DNA of 39,366 nt. Origin: Candidatus Thorarchaeota archaeon SMTZ1-45 (GTDB lineage: Archaea; Asgardarchaeota; Thorarchaeia; Thorarchaeales; Thorarchaeaceae). A program made the translations under genes and the position numbers. Shown here one piece after another: positions 139-24,805 of the stretch (positions are counted from its first letter, which is position 1; every line of letters starts with the position of its first letter). The notes beneath the pieces were generated by a model. That model had not been told where the DNA came from and did not search any database. It saw only the letters and a list, made by a program, of their open reading frames with translations. The stretch covers positions 1-39,366 of the forward strand of contig LRSL01000009.1 of the NCBI GenBank assembly GCA_001563335.1. Reading direction: 5' to 3'.

Positions 139-846
139 ATGAAGAATAGTGAGATATCAGAACGCTTCTCGAAACTCTCAACTCCTCTAATAGCAGATGC
201 CTGCATTCGGTTGGGAGTGTCATTCAACATTGCCCCTTTCGGAATTCAGCCCGTTCTAATTGACTGTCGGATTGGAGGTAAAGCTCTACCAGTGCGTCAC
301 TTTGGAAGTGTTGATGTATTTCTCGAAGCAATGAACGAAGCGGAGGAGGGAGACATTCTTGTAGTGGACAACAATGGTAGGTGTGATGAGGGTTGTATCG
401 GAGACCTAATTGTAATCGAGGCTAATTCTTGTAATCTAGGTGGGATTGTAATTTGGGGCACACATAGGGACACGCCAGAACTTCGAAGCCTTGGGTTTCC
501 ACTATTTAGCTACGGTTCGTGGCCAGTCGGTCCGTTGAGAGTCGATGAGCGTGGTCCTGAAGTCTTTGAGTCTGCCCGTTTTGGGGAATATGGTGTGACA
601 AGAGATGATGCTGTTTTCGGGGACCTAGATGGAGTCTTATTTGTCCCATATGGGAGTGTCAACGAAGTATTGCAGATGGCTGAATCTCTCTCAGAAACTG
701 AAAAATCTCAGGCTAAAGCTGTGAGAAGTGGAAAGACTTTGAGGGAGCAGCTTCGGTTCGATGAATATTTGACCAAGAGAAAAAAAGACCCTCAATACGA
801 CTTCCGTAAGCATCTTCGTAAAATTGGTGGAGCTATAGAAGAATAG
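139..846 (+). CDS. RraA family / HMG-CHA aldolase-like protein
   Basis: STPLIADA N-terminus, GDILVVD, GCIGD, GxxRD and GDLDGV motifs; GGTG SD upstream. Confidence 0.85.
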   Translation: MKNSEISERFSKLSTPLIADACIRLGVSFNIAPFGIQPVLIDCRIGGKALPVRHFGSVDVFLEAMNEAEEGDILVVDNNGRCDEGCIGDLIVIEANSCNLGGIVIWGTHRDTPELRSLGFPLFSYGSWPVGPLRVDERGPEVFESARFGEYGVTRDDAVFGDLDGVLFVPYGSVNEVLQMAESLSETEKSQAKAVRSGKTLREQLRFDEYLTKRKKDPQYDFRKHLRKIGGAIEE

Positions 847-960
847 AATCAACAAGGGTTTACAAATAATCTCTCTCACATATTTGATAAATGCTCTTAG
901 AAAGGGGTTTTAGAAGACTTACAGTTCTATGAGTTGCCAATACTAGACTCTCATTTTGCA

Positions 961-1686
961 TCAATTAGTTTCTGTTGCAAGTGTTATCGACATAGGACTA
1001 CTGAGCTGAGCTCGGAACAATTGAATGTGAGGAATGAGTGCGCTCATCACTTTTCTTTCAGCTTTCTTCAAGTGTTCTTGAAATGTTGATCTAGGCACTC
1101 CAAGTTTCTTCGCTATTGATTGAATATCAGTTCTTCTAGGTCTATCATAATATCCATAGATGAACGCTGTCACAAGTGAATCCATCTGTTTCTCAGTTAA
1201 TTTAGAAAACATTGCATCTGCTGAAGCCGAAAGAGAACTTGCTAGGAACCCCTCGAAAGTACTTCTTTTTAACACCTCAACTTCAAAACCACTTTCCCTC
1301 AGTTTTCTTAGTAGTTTACCAAACTCCTCTGATTTGAAAGTCACCACTCGATAGTACTCCCAGCCGCTGTCATAGACAACTGGGTACACTTCTAGTAAAT
1401 CCAACTCTTCAATCGTTTCAGTTACGGTTTCAACACCTGCTGTACAAGAACGAGCCCTAGTAATCAGGTGAACCTTGCGATCATCGGACATCACATCGAT
1501 TTTCACATCAATCTCCATTAGTTCTTCAAGAATCATCTCATAATCTTCCTGATTCTCAACAATAAACTCGAGAACCTGCTGTTCTCGGTTACTCCACTCG
1601 AACATCTTCACTGAAGGATATCTTCTTGAGATATTGCTAATTGGACAATCATGTGACACTCTGAATTCCAACATTGACATTGTCAT
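961..1686 (-). CDS. Bacterio-opsin activator (Bat)-type HTH_10 transcriptional regulator, paralog 1
   Basis: C-terminal LTEKQ...GYYDRPRR...IAKKLGV..STFQEHLKKAERK signature. Confidence 0.85.
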   Translation of the reverse strand: MTMSMLEFRVSHDCPISNISRRYPSVKMFEWSNREQQVLEFIVENQEDYEMILEELMEIDVKIDVMSDDRKVHLITRARSCTAGVETVTETIEELDLLEVYPVVYDSGWEYYRVVTFKSEEFGKLLRKLRESGFEVEVLKRSTFEGFLASSLSASADAMFSKLTEKQMDSLVTAFIYGYYDRPRRTDIQSIAKKLGVPRSTFQEHLKKAERKVMSALIPHIQLFRAQLSSPMSITLATETN

Positions 1687-1744
1687 TCATCTTCGTCGAA
1701 CATTTTAATGTAATAATCACTCCATAATTTGACCTTAAAAGTGG

Positions 1745-1762
1745 TGCCGGCGTATGCTGGTT
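1745..1762. promoter_or_regulatory. Degenerate palindromic operator (TGCCGGCGTATGCTGGTT)
   Basis: 12/18 match to the core of the perfect palindrome at 14951-14970, mismatches mostly transitions; just upstream of minus-strand TTTTAAG of HTH paralog 1. Confidence 0.55.
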
Positions 1763-1814
1763 GTCTGTTTCGGCCAGCTAAAGTGATTTCGTCCCGCGAA
1801 TGGTCTGTATACAA

Positions 1815-2339
1815 CTAATGAGTTGCAATCCAATCCCTGTGAATAGCTGCCAAATGACCAGAATGGTAGTTCAGATGGCAAAACATGTCTGCGATTACTT
1901 GCCTAATTGATTTTCCACCAAAGAATTCAGGTATAGCTTTATCATCGATTACTCTCTCAAAATCATCACGACTGGCATTTTTCACCCAGTCTAGGAAAGC
2001 CCGTTCACAGAAATCATAGTACTCTTGAATCTTTACTATGTCGATTCCATCCCAGTTTCCTGATGTTCCAGGTAAGTAATTCTCATATATCTTGACAAAA
2101 TTTGAGTGTCCCTTTCTTAGACCTTTAATCACAAAATTCAATGTGAAATCGTAGACTGCCGCTTGATGTGCTAGCACCCAACCAAATGCTGACATCTTTG
2201 ATCTCGGTCGATATGAAAGGTCAATCAGTCCAGACTTAGTCATCTTCAAGATTTCTTGCTCACGCCATGCTCGGACTCTATTTACAGTGTTCTCCACGAA
2301 TTCATTCTCAGTCATATTCAGGAACGAAAATTGAAACAT
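1815..2339 (-). CDS. DinB family protein (start may be ATG 2315)
   Basis: GWVLAH and HLNYHSGH metal-binding His pattern. Confidence 0.75.
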   Translation of the reverse strand: MFQFSFLNMTENEFVENTVNRVRAWREQEILKMTKSGLIDLSYRPRSKMSAFGWVLAHQAAVYDFTLNFVIKGLRKGHSNFVKIYENYLPGTSGNWDGIDIVKIQEYYDFCERAFLDWVKNASRDDFERVIDDKAIPEFFGGKSIRQVIADMFCHLNYHSGHLAAIHRDWIATH

Positions 2340-2512
2340 TGTTAAGTATTATACCGGCGTCTGCCACCTCTTACTCGATTTGACTATTAATAGTTCATGA
2401 ACATTGAATATCATCAGTAGAAAATCATGTCAAATGGTCAAGTCCTAGTGTTCTCACTAGTTCTATAACTAGAATCATAAAGATTCATATCAAACTCTTA
2501 GATGGGTATTTT

Positions 2513-2770
2513 ATGAATCATCGGAGGCTTAGAACCTATTCCAAGGAAATCGGACTTATTCTCATAGGCATGATCATCGCGATAATGGGAATTCTTCTTG
2601 ATGCTTACTGGACTGAACAGTTCTATGCTAACAAGCCTCCATTTTCAACAGGTCCGATTCTGATTGGTACCGCAGGTCTTTTCTTCATATTCCCAGTTGG
2701 ATTGCTGATATTGATCTATGGTGTTCTTGTCATAGTATACAATTCAAAACGTTGGTTAGGAGTACATTAA
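2513..2770 (+). CDS. Small two-TM membrane protein
   Basis: 85 aa with two hydrophobic segments. Confidence 0.65.
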   Translation: MNHRRLRTYSKEIGLILIGMIIAIMGILLDAYWTEQFYANKPPFSTGPILIGTAGLFFIFPVGLLILIYGVLVIVYNSKRWLGVH

Positions 2771-2806
2771 TTGCTAGGCAGAACAGTACTTCTCTGACGA
2801 GTTGAA

Positions 2807-2825
2807 GCTCTTAACTTGTTTGTCG
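2807..2825 (+). repeat. Fragment of spliced tRNA-Lys(CUU): anticodon loop to variable loop
   Basis: GCTCTTAACTTGTTTGTCG vs spliced tRNA GCTCTTA|ACTTGTTGGTCG, 18/19. Confidence 0.75.
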
Positions 2826-2912
2826 TACCAATTCTTACTCTTTAGGTTTCCTAACTGTCACAGATGAGAGGATTGACCATGCTTTGAATCTTGTTAGACG
2901 AGGTTCTAAGTG

Positions 2913-3920
2913 TTAATATCCCAATGAAAGGAAACATTCCACTTGCTCGTTGTAGCCTTTTACTCTATTCGTGTTGAATTGTATATCGAATGAATCAACA
3001 AGCGCAGTCATCGAGGAACTGGAAACATCGATTTTGCTTAGCCATCTAACCGCATTTCTATACAGTGGCCAATCTGACTCCACATCATCGGGTTCTGGAG
3101 TATCTGGGGGAAACTCCCAGCCATCCCGATCGCTTCCTTCCTCTATCTCGCCATGCGGACCAATAAGAAACACTCTGCCCTCTCCGTATGAACAGGCTAT
3201 GATTGCTGCTTTTCCTATGATATCATACTCGCCCAGAATGGAAACGCTAGCATCATCATATGGTTCAAGATAGGGTCCACCCAAGTAGAACATCGTCATC
3301 GGATTTGGCATGGACTCAGTAATAGGATGAGTTTGGTCAACAATGTTGATCTCAGTCATTGCCCAGTAGGTATTATTGCGATCTGCGATTTCGAATATAG
3401 GTCCGTGCGCTACGCCTGGAAAAAGGTCTAGGTTTAATTCATCTCCCTCCACCTTATAATCAGGAGGCGGATAAGCATCATCATCCATCCAGACCATATA
3501 GTCTGCAGCATAGTACGCTCCAGCGCAAATTCCCAGATACCCACCACCCTCAGAAACAAATTCCTGTATCTCTGCCTTGCCTTCAAGACCCACATCAATC
3601 CAGTATTCTGGATAGCGTCCTCCTGGCCACATTAGCACATCATAATCGTCAAGGCATCCGTCTTTGATATCCTGACCTGTCACTGTTGTGAAAGAGCAAC
3701 CCATCCATTCAGTCATATTCGATAGAATTGCTTCTGATATTACCCACGCCCCCTCTCCATTATAATACGCAACATCTACATTGCTTAGGTCTGTATCTTC
3801 TATAGATGGTTCTTGCGCGCCTATGAAAAATAGAACTCCAACCGAGATGATAAGCGCAGAGAGAATAACTGCAATTACGCCCTTGGTGAGAGCAAAGTTG
3901 GTCACAACAAACACCTTCAC
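2913..3920 (-). CDS. Membrane-anchored BPL-N (class I glutamine amidotransferase-like) domain protein
   Basis: N-terminal TM/signal; VAYYNGEG, DVLMWPGG, GGGYLGICAGAYYA, GPHGE motifs; no ligase domain. Confidence 0.8.
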   Translation of the reverse strand: MKVFVVTNFALTKGVIAVILSALIISVGVLFFIGAQEPSIEDTDLSNVDVAYYNGEGAWVISEAILSNMTEWMGCSFTTVTGQDIKDGCLDDYDVLMWPGGRYPEYWIDVGLEGKAEIQEFVSEGGGYLGICAGAYYAADYMVWMDDDAYPPPDYKVEGDELNLDLFPGVAHGPIFEIADRNNTYWAMTEINIVDQTHPITESMPNPMTMFYLGGPYLEPYDDASVSILGEYDIIGKAAIIACSYGEGRVFLIGPHGEIEEGSDRDGWEFPPDTPEPDDVESDWPLYRNAVRWLSKIDVSSSSMTALVDSFDIQFNTNRVKGYNEQVECFLSLGY

Positions 3921-4106
3921 TCGTATTCACATTCATTTGTATTACATCTTTCCATCTTTTTGGAAATCTTTTGCATACTTCAACCAATGACGTATGGTGA
4001 GATGTTACCCCTCATTGACATTGTAGTCCATATCTATTGACGCTTCTCTCTATTGATTGATTTGAGTAGTTGAATCTAGGAATTTACGCTCAACTCAGCC
4101 TTACTC

Positions 4107-4160
4107 CACCACAACTTCTATAAACTGAAGACGAACAGATGGCATTTCGTGGGCCAGTGG
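4107..4160 (+). repeat. Degenerate duplicate of the tRNA-Lys promoter plus first 10 nt of the tRNA
   Basis: Ungapped 41/54 match to 4526-4579, including TCTATAAACT and CGTGGGCCAGTGG. Confidence 0.85.
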
Positions 4161-4228
4161 TCTTTCATCGGGCTCTAGTTGATTATATCGCTTGATTACC
4201 CTTCAATCCTGTTAATTATTTAAACTCC

Positions 4229-4423
4229 TCAACGTTTTCTTAACATGAGCACCACAGCCGCTATTATGAGCACGCAGCCACCAATAAAGAGGAGTAACTT
4301 GAACTGCTCCAACCAATAAGGGGTTGGGACTGAGCCTGGACTAGAACCTCCAAATATCAATAATATGATTCCGAAAAAAAGCAGACTACCCGCTAAATTA
4401 TAGTCCCGCTCCACTGCGGCCAC
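4229..4423 (-). CDS. Small two-TM membrane protein
   Basis: 64 aa, two hydrophobic helices, basic C-terminal tail; TTTATTAA box ~25-30 bp upstream. Confidence 0.65.
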   Translation of the reverse strand: MAAVERDYNLAGSLLFFGIILLIFGGSSPGSVPTPYWLEQFKLLLFIGGCVLIIAAVVLMLRKR

Positions 4424-4535
4424 CTATGCAGAGTAAACAGCTTAGTCTTAATAAACCCAGATATCAAGTATGAAACTTACCTTGCATACTGTCAGTAGCC
4501 AGTTGTACAACACAACCCTCGTTAACACCGCAATC

Positions 4536-4545
4536 TCTATAAACT
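4536..4545 (+). promoter_or_regulatory. TATA box of the tRNA-Lys gene
   Basis: TCTATAAACT ~25-35 bp upstream of tRNA position 1; conserved in the duplicate at 4117-4126. Confidence 0.7.
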
Positions 4546-4569
4546 TACAACAGGCAAAGGGCGTTCCGT

Positions 4570-4707
4570 GGGCCAGTGGCTAAGCCAGGTATAGCGACAG
4601 GCTCTTACTTCTCTCAGGTTATTCTGGGAGGAAGAGAGACTTGTTGGTCGAGGGTTCTGGCTTGTTGATTTCCAACAAGTCGCCCAAAAATCCCTCCTGG
4701 CCCGCCA
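4570..4707 (+). tRNA. tRNA-Lys(CUU) with two introns (4608-4638 at 37/38; 4658-4687 at 56/57), CCA encoded
   Basis: Acceptor GGGCCAG/CTGGCCC+G+CCA; D stem GCTA/TAGC; anticodon stem ACAGG/CTTGT with spliced loop CT-CTT-AA; T stem GAGGG/CCCTC with spliced loop TTCAAAT; both inserts fold into BHB-type motifs. Confidence 0.93.
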
Positions 4708-4710
4708 CAT

Positions 4711-7095
4711 TTACTTCTTCCGAATTACTACAAACAAGACAATTGCAATCCCACCTACAACTCCAATTGTGAATATGATGATAACTATCAGAGTGTCCAG
4801 AGGAGGAGGTCCTGTGGTTGTATCTGAAGCTGTAGATGTAGTGTCGGTTATAGTTGTCGGAAAAGTGGTCGTCGTTGTAGTTGTAGTAGTTGTTACAGTT
4901 TCCTCCACCACTGTGATAATGACCGTGTCTACCAGATTATATCCCGAAGCATCGTTCACTACCAAGGTCAGATTGTAACTACCAACTGATAGACCATTGA
5001 TTGACTTTGATATATGGTCTAGAGAAGAGTTCAAAGAATTTTGAACAATAATTGCTCCTTCCCACAATAACATGTATGATTCGGGATTTGGTAACCTAAC
5101 ATCCCATGAGATCGTAGGGACAATCGAACCAACCACATATTGAACATCATCCTGCCATGTGAGAAAGCCTAACGGATAGTTATCCACACCCATTCCTCCA
5201 ACGGAATAGACACCTTCGCCAGAATAGTCTGACCAGATATTACCCGTGTCTACACCATCATCCCATTCATTCCATATCCCACTATCAACAGCATTACCAG
5301 CCTCATTAAAGCCAATCATGTTGTTATAGATCTCAGAAAAGAGAGTATAGGATCCAAGATTCATTCCATAGTCAGCATTTCCATAGATTCTGTTATCGAG
5401 AATTCTTACGCCTGATGTAAAGTCCAAATGAAGCCCGTCTGACGAACTCCCAAGAATCGTGTTGTTGACAATCTCCAGATAGTTGACAACATAGAGTTCG
5501 AGAGGATCAGTATTATCATAGATCATGTTGTTTCTGACCACTCCGTAGCTGGTGTTAACTATGTTGATAGGATATCCCAGATTTTCATGTATCTGATTGA
5601 AATCAAAAATGTAATTATCAGAGCTAAATACCCAAATACCAAGCCCATTTCTCAGGATTTCACTCTCAGTCACAGTTGTGTAGTCAGATGTGTCAATTTG
5701 GAGTCCTCCAACGGAAGAATCTTTGATGGTCACATTTGTTAGGGTGCAATTGAGTGAGTGTGAAACTTCTATTCCTAAATCGTAGTTATCCACCAATAGA
5801 ACATCCCTTATACTACAATTGAAGCACGAATGAATCGCCATGCCAACAGTCGCAGAGGCGAATGTTCCATTTACTATAGAAAGATGGTTGGAACCTACCA
5901 ACACAAGCTGTCCGTATTCATTCCCGTTGATGGTCAAATCGCCCTGGTTGAGATAGTATCCGAACGGTTTTCCATTGACCGTGTTTCCTGTTTCAGAAAT
6001 AGTCCAGTACTCGGTAGCAGCTCCATTGAATATTATACCACATTCGATGAGAGTATTGTTTCTCAGTGTGGTATTCTCTGACTCGAACAAACTGATACCA
6101 TACAGGTTCTCACTGATTTCCATATCACTGATTGTGCAATTTGAGCACGATAGAAGACTTGGTCCAACTGATACATTGAAGAACACTCCTGAGTCGAGAC
6201 TCACATTGAAGCAGTCGATTAAGAACAGCTGGCCAAATTGATTTCCATCAATCTCGGTATTGTTTGTCCCTAAGAAATATCCAAGGGGTTTACCATTTAC
6301 CATATTCTCGGAGAAGTTGTGCATCCAGTACTCTTTGGACCCTACGATTCCGAAACCCCCATTTTGGAGTATATTGTTGACAAATGTGCAATTTCCAGTC
6401 GACCTGATGTAGAGCCCGAAAAAGCCGCTATCAATTATCTCGTTATCAGCGACTGTGATATTCTCAGAATCTTGAAATCTGATCCCCATTTCTCCGCAAT
6501 TGCGAATATAGTTATTCTCGACAATGGAGTATTTCAGATAGGCTAGATGGAAGCCGTAGCCTTCACAATTAATGACTCTATTCTCACTCAAAGTGCAATT
6601 GTAGCTTGACGCAGCCTGAGCGATTCCATAATAGCCACAGTCAGATAATGTGTTATTTACAATAGTGCAATCAATAGTGCCAATTAAGGCGATTCCAATG
6701 TAGCCGTTAGATATACTACAATTCTCGATAGCACCGTTACTCACATGTGAAAGCCTGATACTATTTGTTTTCACTTCACCTGTTTGCGACAGAACACAGT
6801 TCCTAATGACGAAATGGACATTGGTGTTAAAGATGTATATACATGTACCAGCAGTGACTATTTCCAGTCCTTCGATAATATATGGGGACTGTTGAGTTCC
6901 ATCACCTGGCCATCCCTGTGCTGCGAAAGCGGCATTTCCTGATATTGATATAGGACCATGAGGTACGAGTGATGATGGACTGGTTGAGGTATTTGGAAGC
7001 TCAGTCAAATACACCAGCATAGAACTGACGCTCGCACTAACAATTAACATCCCCACCAAGAAACTCAACAACTGCAGAACATTGATTCTTCTCAC
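4711..7095 (-). CDS. Cell-surface right-handed parallel beta-helix (NosD/CASH-like) repeat protein
   Basis: Signal peptide, GDGTQQSPYIIEG start motif, Asn-rich PbH1-like repeats with an internal duplication (VNGKPLGY/VNGKPFGY), Thr-rich linker, C-terminal TM + RKK. Confidence 0.9.
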   Translation of the reverse strand: MRRINVLQLLSFLVGMLIVSASVSSMLVYLTELPNTSTSPSSLVPHGPISISGNAAFAAQGWPGDGTQQSPYIIEGLEIVTAGTCIYIFNTNVHFVIRNCVLSQTGEVKTNSIRLSHVSNGAIENCSISNGYIGIALIGTIDCTIVNNTLSDCGYYGIAQAASSYNCTLSENRVINCEGYGFHLAYLKYSIVENNYIRNCGEMGIRFQDSENITVADNEIIDSGFFGLYIRSTGNCTFVNNILQNGGFGIVGSKEYWMHNFSENMVNGKPLGYFLGTNNTEIDGNQFGQLFLIDCFNVSLDSGVFFNVSVGPSLLSCSNCTISDMEISENLYGISLFESENTTLRNNTLIECGIIFNGAATEYWTISETGNTVNGKPFGYYLNQGDLTINGNEYGQLVLVGSNHLSIVNGTFASATVGMAIHSCFNCSIRDVLLVDNYDLGIEVSHSLNCTLTNVTIKDSSVGGLQIDTSDYTTVTESEILRNGLGIWVFSSDNYIFDFNQIHENLGYPINIVNTSYGVVRNNMIYDNTDPLELYVVNYLEIVNNTILGSSSDGLHLDFTSGVRILDNRIYGNADYGMNLGSYTLFSEIYNNMIGFNEAGNAVDSGIWNEWDDGVDTGNIWSDYSGEGVYSVGGMGVDNYPLGFLTWQDDVQYVVGSIVPTISWDVRLPNPESYMLLWEGAIIVQNSLNSSLDHISKSINGLSVGSYNLTLVVNDASGYNLVDTVIITVVEETVTTTTTTTTTTFPTTITDTTSTASDTTTGPPPLDTLIVIIIFTIGVVGGIAIVLFVVIRKK

Positions 7096-7263
7096 GAATC
7101 TCCCCAGTACACATTTACCTGTCTGCTATATAAACCAAAGCAATTTATCTATTCATTTATGGACGCTGTAATAGGTTAGAAAATACTGTCTAACTTGCCA
7201 TCACCACTCTATCTATTCTACTTGACCTTACTCAAAGGTATCAGGTATGCCTTTCAGCCAATT

Positions 7264-7283
7264 AAATTCCTCCTAGCCCGCCA
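7264..7283 (+). repeat. tRNA-Lys 3'-end copy 1 (att-like)
   Basis: AAATTCCTCCTAGCCCGCCA vs 4688-4707 AAATCCCTCCTGGCCCGCCA, 18/20. Confidence 0.9.
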
Positions 7284-7353
7284 TTTCATAAAAATTTGCT
7301 TTAATCCAATTCTCTATTATATCATAACTAAGTAGACCATCTGGTTAATCAAA

Positions 7354-8223
7354 ATGGAAGGGATACTCAGAACAGATGCAGGAGAAATCCGTTACTTCTG
7401 GAAGATTTCACTAGCCCTCATCCTGATTATTATGCTAATTGTCATAAGTAGGATTGTCCTGATATTTGCCGTCCAGCAGGTCTTCATTCTTCAAGGTATG
7501 ACCTCCGATATTGCCTTTGAGAACGCACAGGTCTTTGTGTCCGAATCATCAGAGGGTCAGGTGATAGCGAGTTCGCTGGACCTAGTTTTGACACTTCTGC
7601 TTGTACTCTTCCTAGTCACTCGCATCGAGAAACGTGAGTTCCACCTGACCGACCTCGGCTTGGATCTTCAACGTAATATCCTGCCTTTTGTGGGACTAGG
7701 ACTGTTCATGGGATGTGTCCTCTTTCTTGGAGCCGCCATGTTTGGAGTGCTTCTTGGCACACTTGAATTCCCGATATCACCAAATCTCAGCCAGTGGCCA
7801 TTCTTGAGCATGCTAGTTGCTTCAATAGCATTCTACGTCTTGAACAGTTTCTGGCAGGAAGTTCTATTTCGTGGATACTTGCAGACTCGAGCAGTCGGGG
7901 AATTTGGCCGTTTTACTGGAGTGACAGCAGTCACAGTGGTCTTTGTGGTCTTTCATAGCCTAGTTCAAACACTTACACCCATTGGGATTCTAGCAGGTTT
8001 TCTGTTGTTCTCGTTCATAGGTCTATTATATGAAAAGACCAATTCACTCTACCTCGTGGGTGTGATTCATGCAGTTCTAAATTTCCTGCCAGCTCTATTC
8101 AACACATGGTGGCAAGGGCTAGAAGCTGCCATGACATACGGTATTGCACTCATACTATTGATTCTGATGATACACCAAACTGAGCAGAGAGCACAAGTAG
8201 ACTCCAATCACACGCACTTGTAG
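7354..8223 (+). CDS. CPBP (Abi/CAAX protease) family intramembrane metalloprotease
   Basis: Multi-TM; QEVLFRGY, FVVFH and HAVLN motifs (first Glu of EExxxR is Gln). Confidence 0.85.
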   Translation: MEGILRTDAGEIRYFWKISLALILIIMLIVISRIVLIFAVQQVFILQGMTSDIAFENAQVFVSESSEGQVIASSLDLVLTLLLVLFLVTRIEKREFHLTDLGLDLQRNILPFVGLGLFMGCVLFLGAAMFGVLLGTLEFPISPNLSQWPFLSMLVASIAFYVLNSFWQEVLFRGYLQTRAVGEFGRFTGVTAVTVVFVVFHSLVQTLTPIGILAGFLLFSFIGLLYEKTNSLYLVGVIHAVLNFLPALFNTWWQGLEAAMTYGIALILLILMIHQTEQRAQVDSNHTHL

Positions 8224-8233
8224 GATTTTTTTA

Positions 8234-8253
8234 AAATCTCTCCTGGCTCGCCA
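8234..8253 (+). repeat. tRNA-Lys 3'-end copy 2 (att-like)
   Basis: AAATCTCTCCTGGCTCGCCA, 18/20 to 4688-4707. Confidence 0.9.
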
Positions 8254-8283
8254 CACCATTTTGTATGTAGTATCATTAGCAAT

Positions 8284-8958
8284 TTACTGAATAAACATGT
8301 TACCTGCTATCATGACTAGAAACGGGAGATTCACAAGATACATAATAAAATCATAGAGCGCTTCAAAAGCTGGCTCCTTACAAACTAGCTTGGCATATTC
8401 TGTAACTTCGTCCCTACTAGAAAAAAGAGAGGTCAATTCAAGTCGATGGCTTATAGCATCTATTCTATCTTGTTCTCTCTCAAATCTATGCCATCGTCTC
8501 CATACTGACATTGGTAATACCATCACGGAGAAAAAGAAGGTGGTCAAGGCTATGGTATACAAGACACCGAATGGGGAGAGTAGAAATACAAAGTATAGCG
8601 CAGCAACAAGAACAATCAGTGGATAGAGGAACGGAATGAAAAAATCAAGAATGAAAACCTCACGATATGACTCTAACTCATTCTCTTTTTCAATGTCATG
8701 CTCAGTTCTTGCAATGTATAATTTCATACCTGAGAGGAGATCTGTGTCCCTTAACTTAATCTTTAGAAATCCATCATCATCAATACTTGAAGAACACATA
8801 CGTTGCCGAGAAGAATCAGTTTCTTCGAATTCAATCTCAACTCTCTGAAGAACAACATCACTATATCCCTCAGCATAAAGCTCATGGCTTCTCTCAAGTA
8901 TCAACTCTTCGGCTTGTCTTTTCTTCTCTTCATTTTGATGGAAACTCATGTTGTTCAA
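8284..8958 (-). CDS. Hypothetical membrane protein
   Basis: 224 aa, soluble N-terminal part, two central TM helices and a hydrophobic C-terminus. Confidence 0.7.
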   Translation of the reverse strand: MNNMSFHQNEEKKRQAEELILERSHELYAEGYSDVVLQRVEIEFEETDSSRQRMCSSSIDDDGFLKIKLRDTDLLSGMKLYIARTEHDIEKENELESYREVFILDFFIPFLYPLIVLVAALYFVFLLSPFGVLYTIALTTFFFSVMVLPMSVWRRWHRFEREQDRIDAISHRLELTSLFSSRDEVTEYAKLVCKEPAFEALYDFIMYLVNLPFLVMIAGNMFIQ

Positions 8959-9026
8959 TCCATTACTGCAGACTCATCATTCTATCATACAGTGTGAATC
9001 GAGATAATTATTATTGAGAAATCTGT

Positions 9027-9053
9027 GAGAGTTCAAATACCCCTAGCCCGTCA
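9027..9053 (+). repeat. tRNA-Lys 3'-end copy 3, intron-less T-arm form
   Basis: GAGAGTTCAAATACC-CCTAGCCCGTCA vs spliced GAGGGTTC|AAATCCCTCCTGGCCCGCCA, 23/28 with one gap. Confidence 0.85.
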
Positions 9054-9144
9054 TCTACATCTAACTGTTCGCTGAATCGTAGTAAGCAGTATCACTCATA
9101 GAATAGTTCAGTAGAATTGCTTACTATACCGCGATAAAGAAACA

Positions 9145-9165
9145 GGGGCATCCCAAAGACACCCC
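9145..9165 (-). terminator. Hairpin followed by T-rich tract downstream of the 75-aa gene
   Basis: Minus strand GGGGTGTC-TTTGG-GATGCCCC then TGTTTCTTT. Confidence 0.5.
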
Positions 9166-9191
9166 CACTCAAGTTGCTGTTGTATTATAAT

Positions 9192-9419
9192 CTAGTCTGC
9201 ATGACGCATTGTGGTATAAGCATCGATGATGCGCCACAGACCATGCACAACTACGAACGCTAGAGCACTCCACGTTATCATATTTGCATATGTGCTGGAA
9301 CTGATTAGTGTACCACCAATTTCATAGATATATGGTATAAAAGCAAAAATCAAGACAATTTCTAGAATTCCCATGATCAGCTGACCCACAAAGCGTGGTT
9401 TTGCTACGCCTTTCTTCAT
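9192..9419 (-). CDS. Small two-TM membrane protein
   Basis: 75 aa with two hydrophobic helices; GGGAG SD-like upstream. Confidence 0.7.
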   Translation of the reverse strand: MKKGVAKPRFVGQLIMGILEIVLIFAFIPYIYEIGGTLISSSTYANMITWSALAFVVVHGLWRIIDAYTTMRHAD

Positions 9420-9523
9420 TATATTAGAAACTCTCCCAAAGTTTGTGCAATCATTCTACAACGGATATTTAACTCATACTTCTGTTTTCTAGGTCCTTTA
9501 ATAAGTCAATGAGATTATTCTAA

Positions 9524-9545
9524 TTCAAATTCCTCTGGTCCGCCA
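9524..9545 (+). repeat. tRNA-Lys 3'-end copy 4, intron-less T-loop form
   Basis: TTCAAATTCCTC-TGGTCCGCCA vs spliced TTC|AAATCCCTCCTGGCCCGCCA, 20/23 with one gap. Confidence 0.85.
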
Positions 9546-9659
9546 TGCTATCTTACATAAAGAATTGTCAGCTAGTATTGATGAACAGCCGCCATCTTCA
9601 TTGAGGCCGCCAAGCTCTAGGTTCATGCTCCCACAATGTCAGACGGTCGTTCTGGCATT

Positions 9660-10448
9660 TCACAGGACTTTAGGCAGGGTGTCAGAAACCCACTTCTCAT
9701 GAGCGAGATCAATGTCCTGAGATGAAAGCACGTAGTCTAGGTATCTCATATGGTCCTCAACACATCTTGCAATCGCATCATCAGACAGATTATGTATTCC
9801 CCAGTGTTGAGCCATTCTTTCTAATACCTCAAGAGGACTCCGCCAGTAGTTATGAAGATGAATGATCTTTACCTTGAACCCTATGGCCTCCATGCCTCTC
9901 TTGAAGGACTCTATTACTCCGCCATAGAGGACAACGGTCCAAGGATTTCTTTCAGCATGAAAGCTAATATTCTCAATGATGCGACGAAATCCCTTGGCGG
10001 TGAGTTCAAGTTGTTCTTCAAACAGGTCCCTCCATGCACTAATCTTAATCCTTCTCCGAGCACGCTCGCTTGTTTCCAAAAGTAAGGACTTCTCTAGAAG
10101 GCTATGAGCATCCATATGAATTTCCAAATCGTGATAACAGTAGACCTCAAGTCTTGGAATACTTTTCTTGAGTTGGTGCAGAGCGTCTAGAAGGGGGTCG
10201 ACGGTATATCTCAGTGCATTGACATAGGGGTCCTGCAGACCAGTCAGATAGATGTAGCTTTGCCATAACTCCTCTCTGGACACTTCTCCCACCATATAGT
10301 GATTGACGAAATTCGTCATGTCCTCTGGCAGCGCCAAGAAGAGTATCTTGTAGTTTCCCTTTGCCAGCCATTCAATCGCTCTTTCAGTCGTCTTCCTGAG
10401 CTTGGTGAGGACCAAAGTCAAGAGTGTTGGCAACACTGCTGCCTCCAT
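9660..10448 (-). CDS. Hypothetical protein
   Basis: 262-aa ORF 12 bp downstream of the PCM gene, same strand; no motif recognised. Confidence 0.7.
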   Translation of the reverse strand: MEAAVLPTLLTLVLTKLRKTTERAIEWLAKGNYKILFLALPEDMTNFVNHYMVGEVSREELWQSYIYLTGLQDPYVNALRYTVDPLLDALHQLKKSIPRLEVYCYHDLEIHMDAHSLLEKSLLLETSERARRRIKISAWRDLFEEQLELTAKGFRRIIENISFHAERNPWTVVLYGGVIESFKRGMEAIGFKVKIIHLHNYWRSPLEVLERMAQHWGIHNLSDDAIARCVEDHMRYLDYVLSSQDIDLAHEKWVSDTLPKVL

Positions 10449-10460
10449 GTTCTTTGCTAT

Positions 10461-11168
10461 TCAGTCGGACCAACCATGTTTCCCTTTGAGAGGAACGTAT
10501 AGGACTTTTTCTATGAACTTCCTCCTCAAAGTCCCATCCTTGTCCTGTTCTATCAGAATCAAGTCCTGAGCTCTTTCTGGAGATCCGACAGGCGCCATCA
10601 GCCTACCTTGAATCGCGAGCTGGTGAATCAATGGGCGAGGTATCTCAGGGCATGTGGCGGTGATGCAGATCTTGTCGTATGGAGCATCTGGTGCATAACC
10701 CAAAGAACCATCACCATGGATGAGAAAGACATCATCATAGTCTAACCTTTTCATGTTCCGCCTAGCAAAGTTGTATGTTTCCTCATCAATCTCGATTGTG
10801 ACGACTCTTCCATCTGGACCTACAATCTCCCTAGCCAAGGCTGCCCCATATCCAGAACCAGTACCCACTTCGAAGAGCTTCTCACCTGCTTTGAGTCCCA
10901 GAGCCTCATAGAACAACGGATAGCTATGAGGACATGAGATTGTGGCATCACGCCCTGGAAGCGGGAATGGGAGTTCGTGATATGCATAATCTCTGTACTG
11001 CTCAGGAACAAACTCCTCCCTTGGAACCTTGAGCATCGCCTTGATAATCCCTTTAGATTTTAAGAAGCCCTCCTGTGTCAGCCACTTGACCTTCTCTTCT
11101 CTTTCTTTTTCAAATTCTTTCTTTGTCTTTTCCGGTACCTTAGGATGAGGAATAGTCCAACCAACCAT
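10461..11168 (-). CDS. pcm: Protein-L-isoaspartate O-methyltransferase, paralog 1
   Basis: VPREEFV, ATISCPH, EVGTGSGY, GDGSLGY, APYDKI, YVPL motifs. Confidence 0.9.
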   Translation of the reverse strand: MVGWTIPHPKVPEKTKKEFEKEREEKVKWLTQEGFLKSKGIIKAMLKVPREEFVPEQYRDYAYHELPFPLPGRDATISCPHSYPLFYEALGLKAGEKLFEVGTGSGYGAALAREIVGPDGRVVTIEIDEETYNFARRNMKRLDYDDVFLIHGDGSLGYAPDAPYDKICITATCPEIPRPLIHQLAIQGRLMAPVGSPERAQDLILIEQDKDGTLRRKFIEKVLYVPLKGKHGWSD

Positions 11169-11368
11169 CTCAATGTGGAATTCACTGGGATCGAAATAAA
11201 CGAATCGGAATTGGCTTCTAGTTTTAGTCTATCGAATGTGGAGAATTGCTATATTAGTATCTCCAATGTTATTCTATATTCCATCCAGAATCTGAAACGA
11301 TTTCTAGAATTAAATCTCCTGATGAACCATTGTAAAGCAATGATTATGTAAATGGGCTAGGCACGAAA

Positions 11369-12358
11369 CTAATTAGACATTGTTTTAAGCCGTGAAATTA
11401 TCTCTTCAGCCTCAACCATTATTCTATCCAACAATTCCTTAACAGTAGGAATATCTTTGATCAAGCCTACGCCTTGACCACAAGCCACTACTCCAAGGTC
11501 AATATCTCCTTCCCTGTACATCTTTTCAGCTTTATCTCCAGATGCAGCTTGAATGAGCTTGAAGAGAGGAGCTCCTTCAGCCTCTAGTTCAAGCACGTGT
11601 TGCGCTGCTTTGTTGTTCCACAGTCTGTGAGTGTTTCCAACAGAACGCAAAGCTAAAACTGTATCAATTTCTGCTGCTTTAACGAAAGCCTGTTTGAGAT
11701 TGTCATGAATGGGACATTCCTTTGTAGCCATCAGCCTTGTGCCCATAATTACTCCTTCAGCGCCGAGTGCCAATGCCGCAGCAACACCCCTCCCATCAGT
11801 TATTCCCCCACCTGCAATTACAGGAACATCTAGAGCATCAACCACGGATGGAGTCATCACCATCGTTCCGATATCTAAGACTCCAGTAGCTCCACCATTC
11901 TCATATCCCACAACCGTTACTATGTCAGCACCTAGGGATGCTCCTTTTTTCGCATATCTTACCCCAGCACATTTGTGAATCCAGATAGCGCCACCATCCT
12001 TGAATTTAGGAACCAGATCCTCTGGAGCTTTGTGACCACTTGTTTCGATGATTTTCACTTCCTCAGCTAATGTGGCATCAACATAATCTTCTAGCTTTTC
12101 CTGAGGCATTAATGCGGGGAACAAATTGATATTCACGGCAAATGGTTGATCTGTAAGAGATTGTGTCTTTTTGATTGCATCGCGTAGATCATCAGGAGAC
12201 TTGTAATTTGCACTGGCTAGTACAGCACAGGCACCAGCATTACTAGCTGCTGCGACAAACTCTGGATTGGAAATCCTTGCCATGGTACCTGCTATAATCG
12301 GATATTTACATCCCAACATCTCAGTTACTTTTGTCTTTATCATTTGATTCACCCACAC
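11369..12358 (-). CDS. Nitronate monooxygenase / FabK-like flavoprotein (likely start ATG 12343)
   Basis: KYPIIAG, PFAVN, VPVIAGGGITDGRG, GVIMGTR, CGQGVGLI motifs. Confidence 0.88.
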   Translation of the reverse strand: MWVNQMIKTKVTEMLGCKYPIIAGTMARISNPEFVAAASNAGACAVLASANYKSPDDLRDAIKKTQSLTDQPFAVNINLFPALMPQEKLEDYVDATLAEEVKIIETSGHKAPEDLVPKFKDGGAIWIHKCAGVRYAKKGASLGADIVTVVGYENGGATGVLDIGTMVMTPSVVDALDVPVIAGGGITDGRGVAAALALGAEGVIMGTRLMATKECPIHDNLKQAFVKAAEIDTVLALRSVGNTHRLWNNKAAQHVLELEAEGAPLFKLIQAASGDKAEKMYREGDIDLGVVACGQGVGLIKDIPTVKELLDRIMVEAEEIISRLKTMSN

Positions 12359-12559
12359 ATCACTTGAACACCGACTAAATTCTCACAGATAAATATCGTT
12401 ATCAAATAGAACAATCGCTGCAAAGCTCTACTGATATGGAATTGTTCAAATTGCTCCTAGCCTTCAATTTTTCCTTTTTTTCGTAATCTCTATCCACTTG
12501 AATTGCTTTCCTCCCTCACGTAGTAATTCCTCAACAGACATATCTGAAAAGTAGTTGAT

Positions 12560-13075
12560 ATGAGTCGTGTTCTCTTGAGGAGGATCAAGAAGATGAATCG
12601 AGAGGAAATAATCCACTTCTTCGTGGATGACCATCAAAAACTAGAGAATGTCCTTTCAAAACTCACTAGCAAGGAAATTTTCCACGAAAAAGTCCAAGGA
12701 GATTGGACGGTAAAAGACATCATCGCACATATATCCGCTTGGAATTGGGAGCTCATAAAGCAAACAGATCTTGTTCTCTCTGGGAAAAAACCCTGGTATA
12801 CAGACCTCCCTGAAGCAGATTTCAATAAAAAAGCAGTAAAAAAGCGTGAATCTTGGTCTTTAGAGAAGGTCCTCTCAGAGTGGCGAGATTCATTTAATGC
12901 TCTAGTGACGAGAATGAGTACTCTCTCCCAAGAAGAGTGGACATTCGAGCTTGATGATGAGGCATGGCCTGAAGGTGGAAAAGTCACTGTTGCCTCCATC
13001 TTCGGATATCGTTACAATGAAGAAGGGCATGAAGGTGGTCATGCGAAAGTCATTCAGAGATATTTTGATATTTGA
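12560..13075 (+). CDS. DinB-like / ClbS-DfsB four-helix bundle protein (likely start 12593)
   Basis: WTVKDIIAHISAW motif and C-terminal HxxxH. Confidence 0.8.
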   Translation: MSRVLLRRIKKMNREEIIHFFVDDHQKLENVLSKLTSKEIFHEKVQGDWTVKDIIAHISAWNWELIKQTDLVLSGKKPWYTDLPEADFNKKAVKKRESWSLEKVLSEWRDSFNALVTRMSTLSQEEWTFELDDEAWPEGGKVTVASIFGYRYNEEGHEGGHAKVIQRYFDI

Positions 13076-14203: not shown

Positions 14204-14917
14204 TCAAACAAGAGCCATGGAATCTTTTCGATCTTGAGGAAGCTGCCTGAATAGCTGAATATGAGGAATGAGCGCAGTGATTATTTTGTTCTCCGCCTTT
14301 TTCAGATGCTCCAAAAAGGTTGTCCTCGATATCTTCTCTTTAGATGCAATCGTCTGAAGATCCGCTCCTCTCGGAAACCGGAAATATCCCTGCGCATATG
14401 CTGTCAAGAGAGCATGGACCTGTTTATCCGTCAATCCAGAGAACAAGGCATCAGTGGTTAGTGTTAGAGAACTTGCTATGTAACCATCAAAGGGTTTCTT
14501 TCTAATAATCTCAACCTCAAATCCATCCTCTCTAAGTCTTGTAAGAAGTTTCTTGACTCTCTCATGTCTAAAAGCAATCAAACGGAGGTGTTCCCATCCT
14601 CCCTCATATGCAATTGGCGGAATTAACAGAAGTGTTGGGTCTTTGAGATAGTTTTGAACGGTGCCTGGTCCTCCGCATGTACACATCCTTGTGATGACAT
14701 GAGTATTTTCTCCATTGTGTATCTCATCAATTATTTCCATAGCCCTTGACATGCCATTTCTAATTTGATCATAGTCTTCCTGTTTCTGCATGATTAGTTC
14801 CATGACATCATGTTTGTCATTACACCACTGAAAGATCTTGACAGAGGGATTATCTTCTGTAATTTCGCTAAGGGGATTATCATACTTAGCTCTGAACACA
14901 ACCTCGAATAATGACAT
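14204..14917 (-). CDS. Bat-type HTH_10 transcriptional regulator, paralog 2
   Basis: LTDKQ...GYFRFPR...RTTFLEHLKKAENK; colinear with 961-1686 (shared ALIPHIQLFR). Confidence 0.85.
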   Translation of the reverse strand: MSLFEVVFRAKYDNPLSEITEDNPSVKIFQWCNDKHDVMELIMQKQEDYDQIRNGMSRAMEIIDEIHNGENTHVITRMCTCGGPGTVQNYLKDPTLLLIPPIAYEGGWEHLRLIAFRHERVKKLLTRLREDGFEVEIIRKKPFDGYIASSLTLTTDALFSGLTDKQVHALLTAYAQGYFRFPRGADLQTIASKEKISRTTFLEHLKKAENKIITALIPHIQLFRQLPQDRKDSMALV

Positions 14918-24068: not shown

Positions 24069-24127
24069 GATTGTTATACTGCGCCCAAGCCTTTTATGAA
24101 TGCATGCCATCTCTATCAGTGATTCAC

Positions 24128-24805
24128 ATGCCTGAAGACCGTTTCAAGAAAACAATCGATGATTTAGTTCGACGTTTGCGAGGCTATGGCTACATCAAGA
24201 CCGATGAGATGGAACGTGCCTTTAGGACTGTGCCAAGAGAAGAGTTTGTACGCTCTGACACTCGAAACCATGCGTATCGCGACTCCCCACTCCCAATAGG
24301 CCTAGGTCAGACAATCTCTGCTCCGCATATGTGTGTGATAATGTGCGAAGCCCTTAGACTGAAGCCTGGCCTTAAGATCTTGGAGGTAGGTGCTGGTTCT
24401 GGATATCATGCTGCTCTATGTGCAGAGATGGTCGCCCCCAAATCTACTGATACCCCTGGTCATGTCTATACCACAGAGATTGTTGGTGGATTGATTGATT
24501 TTGCGAGGGGAAACCTTGAACGTAGTGGATATGATGATCGAGTCACCCTCATTCATGCTGATGGTGGAATAGGATTACCTGAACATGCCCCATTTGATAG
24601 AATACTTGTTGCAGCAGCAGCACCATCCATTCCAGAACCACTGGTCGATCAACTCAGTCCTGGCGGCATTATGTTGATTCCAGTTGGTGGGAGGGGATTC
24701 TTCCAAGAACTCATGATGGTAGAGAAAAATGAGGCTGGAGAGGTTTCTCAGAAACGCTGGGGTGGTGTGGCATTTGTGCCTCTCACTGGTAAGTATGGTC
24801 ATTAG
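24128..24805 (+). CDS. pcm: Protein-L-isoaspartate O-methyltransferase, paralog 2
   Basis: GQTISAPHM, LEVGAGSGYHAA, APFDRI, FVPL; start adjusted to ATG 24128. Confidence 0.92.
   Translation: MPEDRFKKTIDDLVRRLRGYGYIKTDEMERAFRTVPREEFVRSDTRNHAYRDSPLPIGLGQTISAPHMCVIMCEALRLKPGLKILEVGAGSGYHAALCAEMVAPKSTDTPGHVYTTEIVGGLIDFARGNLERSGYDDRVTLIHADGGIGLPEHAPFDRILVAAAAPSIPEPLVDQLSPGGIMLIPVGGRGFFQELMMVEKNEAGEVSQKRWGGVAFVPLTGKYGH

Follow-up and report, generated by a model that had tools for sequence, protein, structure and literature searches.

A tRNA-Lys-anchored array of single-gene units bounded by tRNA 3'-end repeats in Candidatus Thorarchaeota archaeon SMTZ1-45 and its congeners

Among described systems, the closest to the locus reported here are islands inserted in tandem at an RNA gene, namely those at ssrA in Dehalococcoides (PMC3146451) and the tycheposons of Prochlorococcus (10.1101/2020.12.28.424599). 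As outlined in these reports, the features that recur here are an intact RNA gene at one end, downstream direct repeats of its 3' ~20 nt in a single orientation, insertion in or near the T-loop, newer units that push older ones outward, and a strain-variable region in which some units carry no integrase. Many of these islands bear integrases, described as a CcrB-type serine recombinase in Dehalococcoides, where the islands fall in the size range of typical phage genomes (PMC3146451), and as tyrosine or serine recombinases in the tycheposons (10.1101/2020.12.28.424599). In this study, we analysed a stretch of 39,366 nt, hereafter the window, which is the whole of contig C9 in the assembly of Thorarchaeota archaeon SMTZ1-45 (3.54 Mb, 119 contigs, 87.7% complete). 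It carries a tRNA-Lys(CTT) gene followed by direct copies of the 3' end of that gene, with mostly one gene between neighbouring copies. We hold, with moderate confidence, that the locus is a tRNA-anchored array formed by serial Campbell-type insertion of one-gene circles at the T-loop/3' end of the tRNA.

In contrast to the tandem islands, the units here have a median length of ~0.8-0.9 kb and hold one gene, the arrays and most of the genomes are free of integrases, and the host is an Asgard archaeon. An intact target gene, 3' direct repeats, and gain, loss and reordering of units at the repeats, all features of an accretion island, were found; an integrase in the units, present or past, was found neither by genome profiles, nor by tblastn over 545 kb, nor among the cargo families listed. 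Tandem islands at partial tRNA or tmRNA repeats and integrase-less units flanked by att sites (cis-mobilisable elements, CIMEs) are already known from the sources cited. The one-gene unit with a sub-kb median, the depth of the arrays, the lack of integrases and the multiple tRNA anchors in an Asgard lineage set this locus apart. In the literature searched, with supplements and subscription journals outside its scope, such arrays were not described for Asgard archaea or any others. For the comparisons below, the window was searched at the DNA level against 41 genomes, 24 of them from the same genus; 40 congener regions were extracted and mapped, and genus-wide pattern and Pfam scans took in 28 genomes (genomes, contigs and loci are denoted by G, C and L numbers).

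The anchoring gene escaped the standard tools. ARAGORN reported no tRNA in the window, and neither did Rfam at its gathering score or at E<=10; weak Rfam matches to two snoRNA families and a fluoride riboswitch (E 1.2-5.7) were regarded as chance. When positions 4480-4780 were read directly, acceptor, D-arm, anticodon-arm and T-arm segments were found, broken twice. In silico removal of 4608-4638 and 4658-4687 yielded a canonical 77-nt tRNA-Lys(CTT) with an ARAGORN score of 123.2. Moving the junction by two bases gave the anticodon CTA with a score of 126.2, above that of Lys(CTT), and the Lys identity thus assumes the canonical 37/38 splice position. The gene is as follows.

4570..4707, + strand: tRNA-Lys(CTT) with two putative introns, the inserts 4608-4638 (at 37/38) and 4658-4687 (in the T-loop); CCA encoded

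Its 5' exon is 97-100% identical among congeners. In minimum-energy folds, the first insert had bulges of 2 nt and 1 nt on either side of a 5-bp helix where splicing is expected (a relaxed bulge-helix-bulge), and the T-loop insert formed a 10-bp hairpin with no evident bulge-helix-bulge motif. A separate intron-less tRNA-Lys(CUU) was present in one congener; none was found in this assembly (88% complete).

Downstream of the gene, a repeat finder detected a family at 4686, 7262, 8232 and 9032 that resembles the tRNA 3' end (T-loop, acceptor strand, CCA). When the spliced tRNA was compared with the whole 3.5-Mb genome, the best non-self matches all lay on C9, on the strand of the tRNA (2807-2825, 18/19; 8233-8253, 19/21; 7264-7283, 18/20). 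The repeat, referred to as t3, corresponds to the last ~23-28 nt of tRNA-Lys(CUU), from the T-loop, sometimes with the 5' T-stem strand as well, to the encoded CCA. Most copies lack the 5' T-stem strand and everything upstream of it, and some reach into the T-stem. The left limit of identity is fairly constant, in or at the T-loop, which is described as the site of action of tRNA- and tmRNA-targeting integrases (PMC8371274, PMC3146451). An nhmmer profile made from 33 congener copies scored the tRNA gene of the window at 23.3 bits, and the copies at 7264, 8231 and 9523 all exceeded the top score from 30 shuffles of the window (8.2 bits; mean of the best scores, 4.1). The sites at 9031 and 12444 are at noise level by score alone. 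The latter is column-aligned with clear t3 copies that follow the nitronate monooxygenase (NMO) gene in G024, G016 and G042, and congener homology blocks finish at 12458-12466.

7261..7286, + strand: t3 copy; 16.8 bits, E 2.3e-4, position weight matrix (PWM) score 24.4; congener homology blocks begin at 7264
8231..8255, + strand: t3 copy; 16.0 bits, E 4e-4; G024 and G014 blocks finish at 8253
9031..9057, + strand: weak, indel-bearing t3 copy; 4.4 bits; sole support, a G010 block beginning at query 9031
9523..9547, + strand: t3 copy with one deletion; 11.5 bits, E 0.011
12444..12468, + strand: degenerate t3 copy closing the NMO cassette; PWM score 9.9, nhmmer 2.4 bits

The original prediction, made from the letters of the window, had placed six pieces of tRNA-Lys between 2807 and 9545, all on the strand of the tRNA. 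Those at 2807, 4107, 7264, 8231 and 9523 were recovered, the sixth (9027/9031) is the one that does not rise above noise by score, and the + strand applies throughout. The array reaches past 9545 to the degenerate repeat at 12444-12468, and from the arrangement in relatives it would formerly have run through the DinB gene to about 13.1 kb.

Modules of the window were present in 23 of the 24 congeners, in varying orders and combinations. The repeat pattern occurred in 23 of the 28 genus genomes, as compared with 0 for a reversed-pattern control, and up to 5 exact or near-exact copies lay on one strand of a contig. A scan with the profile at a cut-off of at least 9 bits gave 91 sites in 45 loci, one site being counted twice as L024 and L046 share 4 kb. 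All sites were on a single strand in 22 of the 25 loci with at least two of them, and in two of the three mixed-strand loci the odd site was a separate intact tRNA-Lys gene. Arrays contained up to 7 repeats within 5-9 kb. The 53 intervals between sites had a median length of 875 bp (range 304-4183), and exactly one open reading frame (ORF) of at least 50 aa was found in 39 of them, or in 40 with the beta-helix unit of the window, which was missed by the ORF finder because its stop codon abuts the tRNA. These counts exclude L005, L006, L009, L010, L011 and L054, which are sub-regions of other loci, and the integrase loci L033-L038; the weak window sites 9031 and 12444 were entered manually before the intervals were counted.

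The order of units varied by species, and gene content between the repeats was not fixed among relatives. The unit encoding a 248-aa methyltransferase is first after the tRNA in G022, second in G042 and third in G003. In an alignment of this unit from 8 genomes, column identity was 0.1-0.3 to the left of the left repeat, 0.75-0.95 inside, and ~0.3 past the right repeat, and the unit kept its right-hand repeat in an extended form including the 5' T-stem strand. Homology was likewise limited by the repeats for the CPBP and NMO units (4 genomes each). Since the right-hand repeat stays with the unit and homology stops at the repeats, a unit consists of a gene and its own distal repeat. In the window itself, congener homology blocks start or end at query positions 7264, 8253, 9031 and 12458-12466, and in the aligned units column identity drops at the repeats, in agreement with the expectation that breakpoints would coincide with the tRNA fragments. 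The orientation of the gene relative to the repeat was constant within each recurrent family (8/8, 6/6, 5/5 and 4/4), and it varied between families, with 22 single-ORF units on the minus and 17 on the plus orientation.

These observations bear on whether the repeats could be functional, as 3' halves of split tRNAs, processing or termination signals, or small RNAs, rather than scars of insertion. The copies are better conserved than the spacers in many congeners (91-100%), and the genome has many unusual intron-bearing tRNAs, as such a role would suggest. However, most copies lack the 5' T-stem strand and all upstream of it, which makes a tRNA half impossible, and there is no fixed relation to gene ends, given the 22 minus and 17 plus units. 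The repeats, moreover, mark homology breakpoints between genomes, and Rfam finds nothing there. A functional origin therefore seems very improbable to us. The specific case of split-tRNA halves was rejected on the lack of everything upstream of the T-loop in most copies, and an origin by tRNA-primed reverse transcription was rejected in view of the mixed gene orientation relative to the repeat and of the copies that extend into the T-stem.

The protein-coding genes in and around the array of the window are listed below; TM denotes transmembrane.

2913..3920, - strand: upstream cassette gene, BPL_N-domain protein with an N-terminal membrane anchor (PF09825, E 1.2e-25; TM-like segment 1-38)
4229..4423, - strand: upstream cassette gene, 64-aa two-TM protein (ORF; TM-like segments)
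4711..7095, - strand: cassette 1, 794-aa NosD/beta-helix protein with N- and C-terminal TM segments (PF05048, PF13229)
7354..8223, + strand: cassette 2, CPBP/Rce1-like intramembrane protease (PF02517)
8284..8958, - strand: cassette 3, 224-aa membrane protein without a Pfam family (TM-like segments)
9192..9419, - strand: cassette 4, 75-aa TM protein (ORF; TM-like segments)
9660..11168, - strand: two-gene unit, 262-aa protein without a family and PCMT (PF01135)
11369..12358, - strand: old cassette, NMO (PF03060), with clear flanking t3 copies in G024
12560..13075, + strand: DinB_2 protein (PF12867); its right-hand repeat is no longer recognisable here

Several of these genes change place among congeners. 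The beta-helix cassette occupies different array positions in G003, G005 and G014, the homologue of cassette 3 is at another position in G005, and the 75-aa TM gene precedes NMO in 6 congeners and follows it in 3. Of the 5 copies aligned with the DinB gene, which came from 4 congeners, 4 copies in 3 congeners had t3 flanks. Among the upstream genes, the BPL_N gene directly precedes the tRNA or is absent, and the 64-aa TM gene is beside the tRNA in some congeners and missing from others. The 9660-11168 unit had no DNA match at this locus in congeners, and 10465-11174 was matched by three non-genus genomes only; its PCMT (10461-11168) is 41% identical to the second PCMT of the window, at 24071-24805, and this array copy looks acquired, to judge from such comparisons. 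The rest of the window consists of housekeeping genes. Paralogous HTH_10/HVO_A0563_N regulators flank the array at 961-1686 and 14204-14917 (46% identical by tblastn), and the second HTH_10 regulator adjoins NMO in congeners. No anomaly of base composition was seen across the array.

One gene per interval, in the protein families originally named, was borne out by Pfam, and TM-like segments were found in all six products of 2807-9545, as had been claimed. The further proposal that the array diversifies the cell envelope did not hold as a general rule. No TM-like segments were found in the 262-aa protein, PCMT, NMO or DinB, and in the survey of cargo, made on 20 representatives and then on a set of 84 different ORFs for which the top 25 of 95 families were listed, methyltransferases, GNATs, CPBP proteases, beta-helix proteins, DinB_2, NMO, FMN reductases and peptidases dominated, together with unknowns and a few defence-like genes (AbiTii, HEPN). 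The cargo thus comprises general accessory genes, genus-wide mostly small soluble enzymes, and not specifically envelope proteins.

Arrays of the same architecture were also found at other tRNAs of this genome and outside the genomes compared. After tRNA-Leu(GAG) (C34:10448-11560) follow a 158-aa ORF, a 23/24 repeat, a 152-aa ORF and a 21/23 repeat; after tRNA-Ala(GGC) (C15:51490-59407), single-ORF units of 160 aa and 150 aa and more repeats, including 22/22 and 22/23 copies; and after tRNA-Gln(TTG) (C101:2011-2956), one unit. In these three arrays, same-strand copies of the 3' end bracket single ORFs of 150-257 aa. When the 3' ends of 42 tRNAs were used as queries, nearby copies were on the same strand in 16 cases and on the opposite strand in 2, and reversed queries gave 0. 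The Ala array is probably the source of a spurious ARAGORN call at C15 53628-54967, a 'tRNA-Tyr with a 1245-nt intron'. With the intron-less repeat as query, 38 loci were obtained from public metagenome contigs, 26 of them with at least two sites (single-strand in 22/26). The 46 metagenome intervals, which are not independent because several loci are near-duplicates from related samples, had a median of 806 bp, and 33 contained one ORF. In public genomes, among the matches listed, multi-copy contigs were titled only Candidatus Thorarchaeota, Promethearchaeota or 'uncultured archaeon', and the bacterial matches were single-copy.

The reading we prefer, serial insertion of one-gene circles, could proceed as follows. 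A small circular DNA carrying one copy of the tRNA tail would recombine in Campbell fashion with the chromosomal tRNA gene or with an earlier copy. The incoming copy would regenerate the tRNA, the former 3' end would be displaced downstream as a direct repeat, and repeated rounds would build up the array. Recombination between two repeats could loop a unit out as a circle, leading to its loss, reordering, or passage to other cells. Such a scheme predicts an intact tRNA with direct repeats of its tail downstream, units that bring their own distal repeat, a constant polarity and breakpoints at the repeats, which is the pattern observed. We infer both the circular intermediate and the enzyme, and we slightly prefer a conservative site-specific recombinase supplied in trans over homologous recombination alone on 23-28 nt. 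We lean to such an enzyme because identity to the tRNA has its left limit in or at the T-loop, in line with the sublocations that integrases use. Its gene could lie on an unbinned virus or plasmid, or the enzyme could be of a family outside the profiles used.

A number of findings weigh against serial insertion by this route, and the first of them concern the enzyme. No recombinase or transposase family was found by Pfam among the window ORFs scanned, as originally stated, and the search of the genome for stand-alone tyrosine recombinases that had been proposed was negative: PF00589 gave 0 matches here, compared with matches in 14 of 14 control genomes. In the genus, PF00589 matched in 8 of 28 genomes, never on array contigs. 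The SSV-type PF16795 and the large serine recombinase family PF07508 gave 0 here and 0/28 in the genus, and the small serine recombinases of ~200 aa (PF00239) gave 0 here and were found in 8 of 28 genus genomes, not on array contigs. None of these four families was present in 17 of the 28 genomes, DDE transposases, HUH, IS110 and Cas1 not having been searched genome-wide; these 17 include the array-rich G005, G017, G010, G042 and G022. When 40 ORFs from recombinase-bearing loci were compared by tblastn with 83 array loci (545 kb), no recombinase match was obtained; the matches that did arise were rejected as ~480-aa ORFs that neighbour small serine recombinases at their source and lie kilobases from any array. 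No viral contig scanned for the attachment sequence carried the site, three matches being attributed to chance (high GC, no tRNA context, no similarity to cassette proteins). All of the genomes compared are incomplete metagenome-assembled genomes (MAGs; 71-99% complete), and MAGs commonly miss their mobile elements; the enzyme may therefore be encoded on an unbinned element. Since 20 of 28 genus genomes gave no PF00589 match, a Xer-type chromosome-dimer resolvase is either absent from them or has diverged beyond the reach of the profile. In one congener contig (G020:C116, L033:1-2406 and beyond), tyrosine-recombinase ORFs of 352, 331 and 173 aa lie in tandem within ~2.7 kb, and the part examined had no tRNA-tail repeat.

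A helper element of the kind that mobilises CIMEs was likewise sought. CIMEs (the term follows PMC3146451; see also PMC5704250) are described as adjoining, and being mobilised by, a co-resident integrase-bearing element, and the units here resemble them, on that description, in being flanked by att-type repeats and in encoding neither integration nor transfer; they would need an enzyme in trans. They differ in that no integrase-bearing element was found beside any array, and none sharing the att site was found in the MAGs (which often lack mobile elements), in the viral contigs or at the six integrase loci of congeners, which had no tRNA-tail repeat.

Direct evidence of excision also failed to appear. 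In the assembled contigs, not raw reads, of four runs holding the window, of which X1 is perhaps the source sample, neither a circular junction nor an excision joint turned up at the repeats. The sole joint listed connects 11174 to 11393 with 104 other letters between them (one contig each in X2 and X3), in flanks that differ by ~5%, and is a replaced PCMT-NMO spacer in a diverged strain. Two further contigs count in favour of serial insertion. An X3 contig that matches from 4639 on is preceded by the letters of the other tRNA allele joined to the 3' exon of the window, and near-identical strains thus differ in the arrangement of tRNA introns. An X1 contig passes from unrelated sequence into the window at 8225, next to the repeat at 8231. 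The depth of X2 and X3 was near zero at ~3270-4670 with neighbouring bins covered, which in the absence of a bridging contig is not evidence of absence. Contigs of congeners often end at or inside the tRNA-tail repeat (e.g., L018:1-30, L041:37-63 and G020:C435:1-19), and array contigs in congeners are frequently just 2-6 kb, which suggests assembly breaks at arrays from repeats or population heterogeneity.

The intervals and repeats themselves supply two more adverse points. In 13 of the 53 intervals there were 0 or more than 1 ORFs, some intervals reaching 4.2 kb with AbiTii/HEPN-type genes, and these look as small decayed islands would. The repeats of the window are degenerate (2 mismatches in 20, or indels), and its array may therefore be old and inactive. 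Both are what ordinary decay would predict, in which the intervals are leftovers of multi-gene viruses or plasmids that once bore integrases and the arrays are graveyards of tandem integrations. Tandem integration at tRNAs with loss of the integrase is documented for archaea (PMC8371274) and bacteria (10.1101/2020.12.28.424599, PMC3146451) in the accounts cited. However, a single ORF fills most of the interval in ~40 of 53 cases, and in 33 of 46 in the metagenomes, and as many as 8 species share a given one-gene unit with the same boundaries and different neighbours, which independent decay would not produce. No integrase fragment or virus or plasmid hallmark was found among the 20 cargo representatives or the top 25 families of the 84 ORFs, nor by tblastn, and in relatives no case was seen of a unit that is the remnant of an integrase-bearing island. 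We regard decay as an improbable source of the arrays.

The last adverse point is that arrays occur at four tRNAs of different sequence, for which several specific enzymes or one relaxed enzyme would be needed, and this favours a process driven by homology. In such a process, which needs no dedicated recombinase, general recombination would act on the 23-28-nt tails and on upstream promoter/5'-exon repeats of ~60-85 nt; it would excise units, reinsert them as circles and exchange them among strains, and new units would come from the decay of larger insertions at the tRNA to one gene. It stays a serious rival to serial insertion by an enzyme because no integrase is detectable and the arrays are at four different tRNAs; in keeping with it, one architecture is seen at all four, and tyrosine and serine recombinases are lacking here, in 17 of 28 congeners and in the array loci. 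In addition, all four downstream copies in G017 bear that genome's own tRNA variant, as under gene conversion, and homologous recombination between tandem elements is named as a route of module exchange in PMC8371274. On the other side, 23 nt would be very short for efficient homologous recombination, and the left limit, which varies rather little and falls at the T-loop, is what one would sooner expect of a defined crossover site. The tight one-gene size is left unexplained, and the same process should rapidly delete arrays of perfect direct repeats. On balance, recombination on homology alone strikes us as rather unlikely, at about one chance in a few.

Two pieces on the 5' side of the tRNA are relevant to this choice.

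2783..2825, + strand: internal piece of an older tRNA-Lys allele (3' part of an intron, anticodon loop, 3' anticodon stem, variable region; no 37/38 intron)
4106..4160, + strand: promoter copy and first 10 nt of the tRNA (54 nt, 76% to 4526-4579 by the repeat finder)

They differ in kind, as promoter/5' and internal pieces, from the four downstream copies of the 3' end. The first matched the intact allele of a congener at 37/42, from within an anticodon-stem intron through the variable loop, with a score of 64 against a null maximum of 33 (300 random windows), and its sequence comes straight after the 5' exon in 8 congeners. The second matched the promoter and first 10 nt of the congener allele at 46/54, better than the 76% to the own promoter of the window gene. 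Since both match the congener allele, they are remnants of an older allele with a different intron, and these promoter/5'-exon duplicates suggest separate 5'-side events on that allele. Such duplicates could have arisen by use of the tRNA 5' half, or by homologous Campbell insertion of a circle carrying the whole tRNA. Archaeal tRNA-targeting integrases of the SSV, pNOB8 and pTN3 types are described as preferring the tRNA 3' end, with variable 5' limits, and the pTN3-like ones as using the 5' half (PMC8371274), which could explain the upstream duplicates; no integrase of the SSV, pNOB8 or pTN3 type was detected here, with PF00589 in 8 of 28 congeners and PF16795 in none. Read as remnants of promoter-plus-tRNA duplication, the upstream pieces are what homologous insertion of a full-tRNA circle would leave, and they count in favour of recombination on homology alone. 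In G001 (L014:9007-9490, L013:18835-18875; G001:C3), three copies of the tRNA promoter and first ~10 nt are present, the array-bearing tRNA body was not detected, and degenerate repeats alone surround its methyltransferase cassette; this locus may be the fossil of an array whose anchor gene has been lost.

The array had been called integron-like, and this is apt for its outcome and not for its parts. Integrons, which have also been reported in Archaea (10.1101/2022.02.06.479319), share with the arrays mostly single-ORF cassettes of ~0.3-1.8 kb with their own site at one end, a cargo of small accessory enzymes (GNATs, methyltransferases, DinB-like), and an order and content that vary between relatives. 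The single-ORF part agrees here (39-40/53), whereas the co-orientation of integron cassettes is not seen, with 22 minus and 17 plus units. IntI and attI are both lacking, a functional tRNA gene takes the place of the anchor, several tRNAs serve as anchors in one genome, and by inspection the boundaries are direct copies from the T-loop to CCA, unlike the imperfect palindromes of the attC type. It is possible, though we hold this only tentatively, that the arrays represent an undescribed gene-capture system of Thorarchaeota, analogous to integrons, in which single-gene cassettes attach at T-arm/3' tails of tRNAs through a host or unrecognised recombinase, with intron variation as a by-product or a defence.

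The introns of the anchoring tRNA vary in position among congeners (L018:1-175, - strand; L025:5592-5756; L030:3369-3535 and 5551-5672). In the gene of the window the inserts are at 37/38 and within the T-loop, whereas the G008 type carries a single anticodon-stem intron, and G024 and G023 combine an anticodon-stem insert with one in the T-loop; G020:C435 holds two convergent tRNA-Lys copies with differing intron alleles. It has been proposed that introns borne on attP alter the intron content of tRNAs (Sugahara et al., cited in PMC8371274), and we infer that the variable positions fit attP sites carrying introns. In the whole genome, ARAGORN reported 26 tRNAs without and 41 with intron search, none on C9; several of the calls are odd, and there is one tRNA-Sec on C29. 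Many tRNAs here probably carry multiple or non-canonical introns that escape standard tools.

Because the anchor tRNA is missed by standard finders, island finders that depend on tRNA and integrase calls would overlook such arrays; in most of the genomes no integrase is visible. For these archaea, the arrays are defined, repeat-bounded sites at which species differ by the gain, loss and reordering of single accessory genes; they offer a testable platform for gene flow, and their cassettes a catalogue of genes under recent exchange. They also link the diversity of tRNA introns to recombination at the same two sites of the tRNA, and so are relevant to the old proposal that such introns originate from integrating elements or guard against them.

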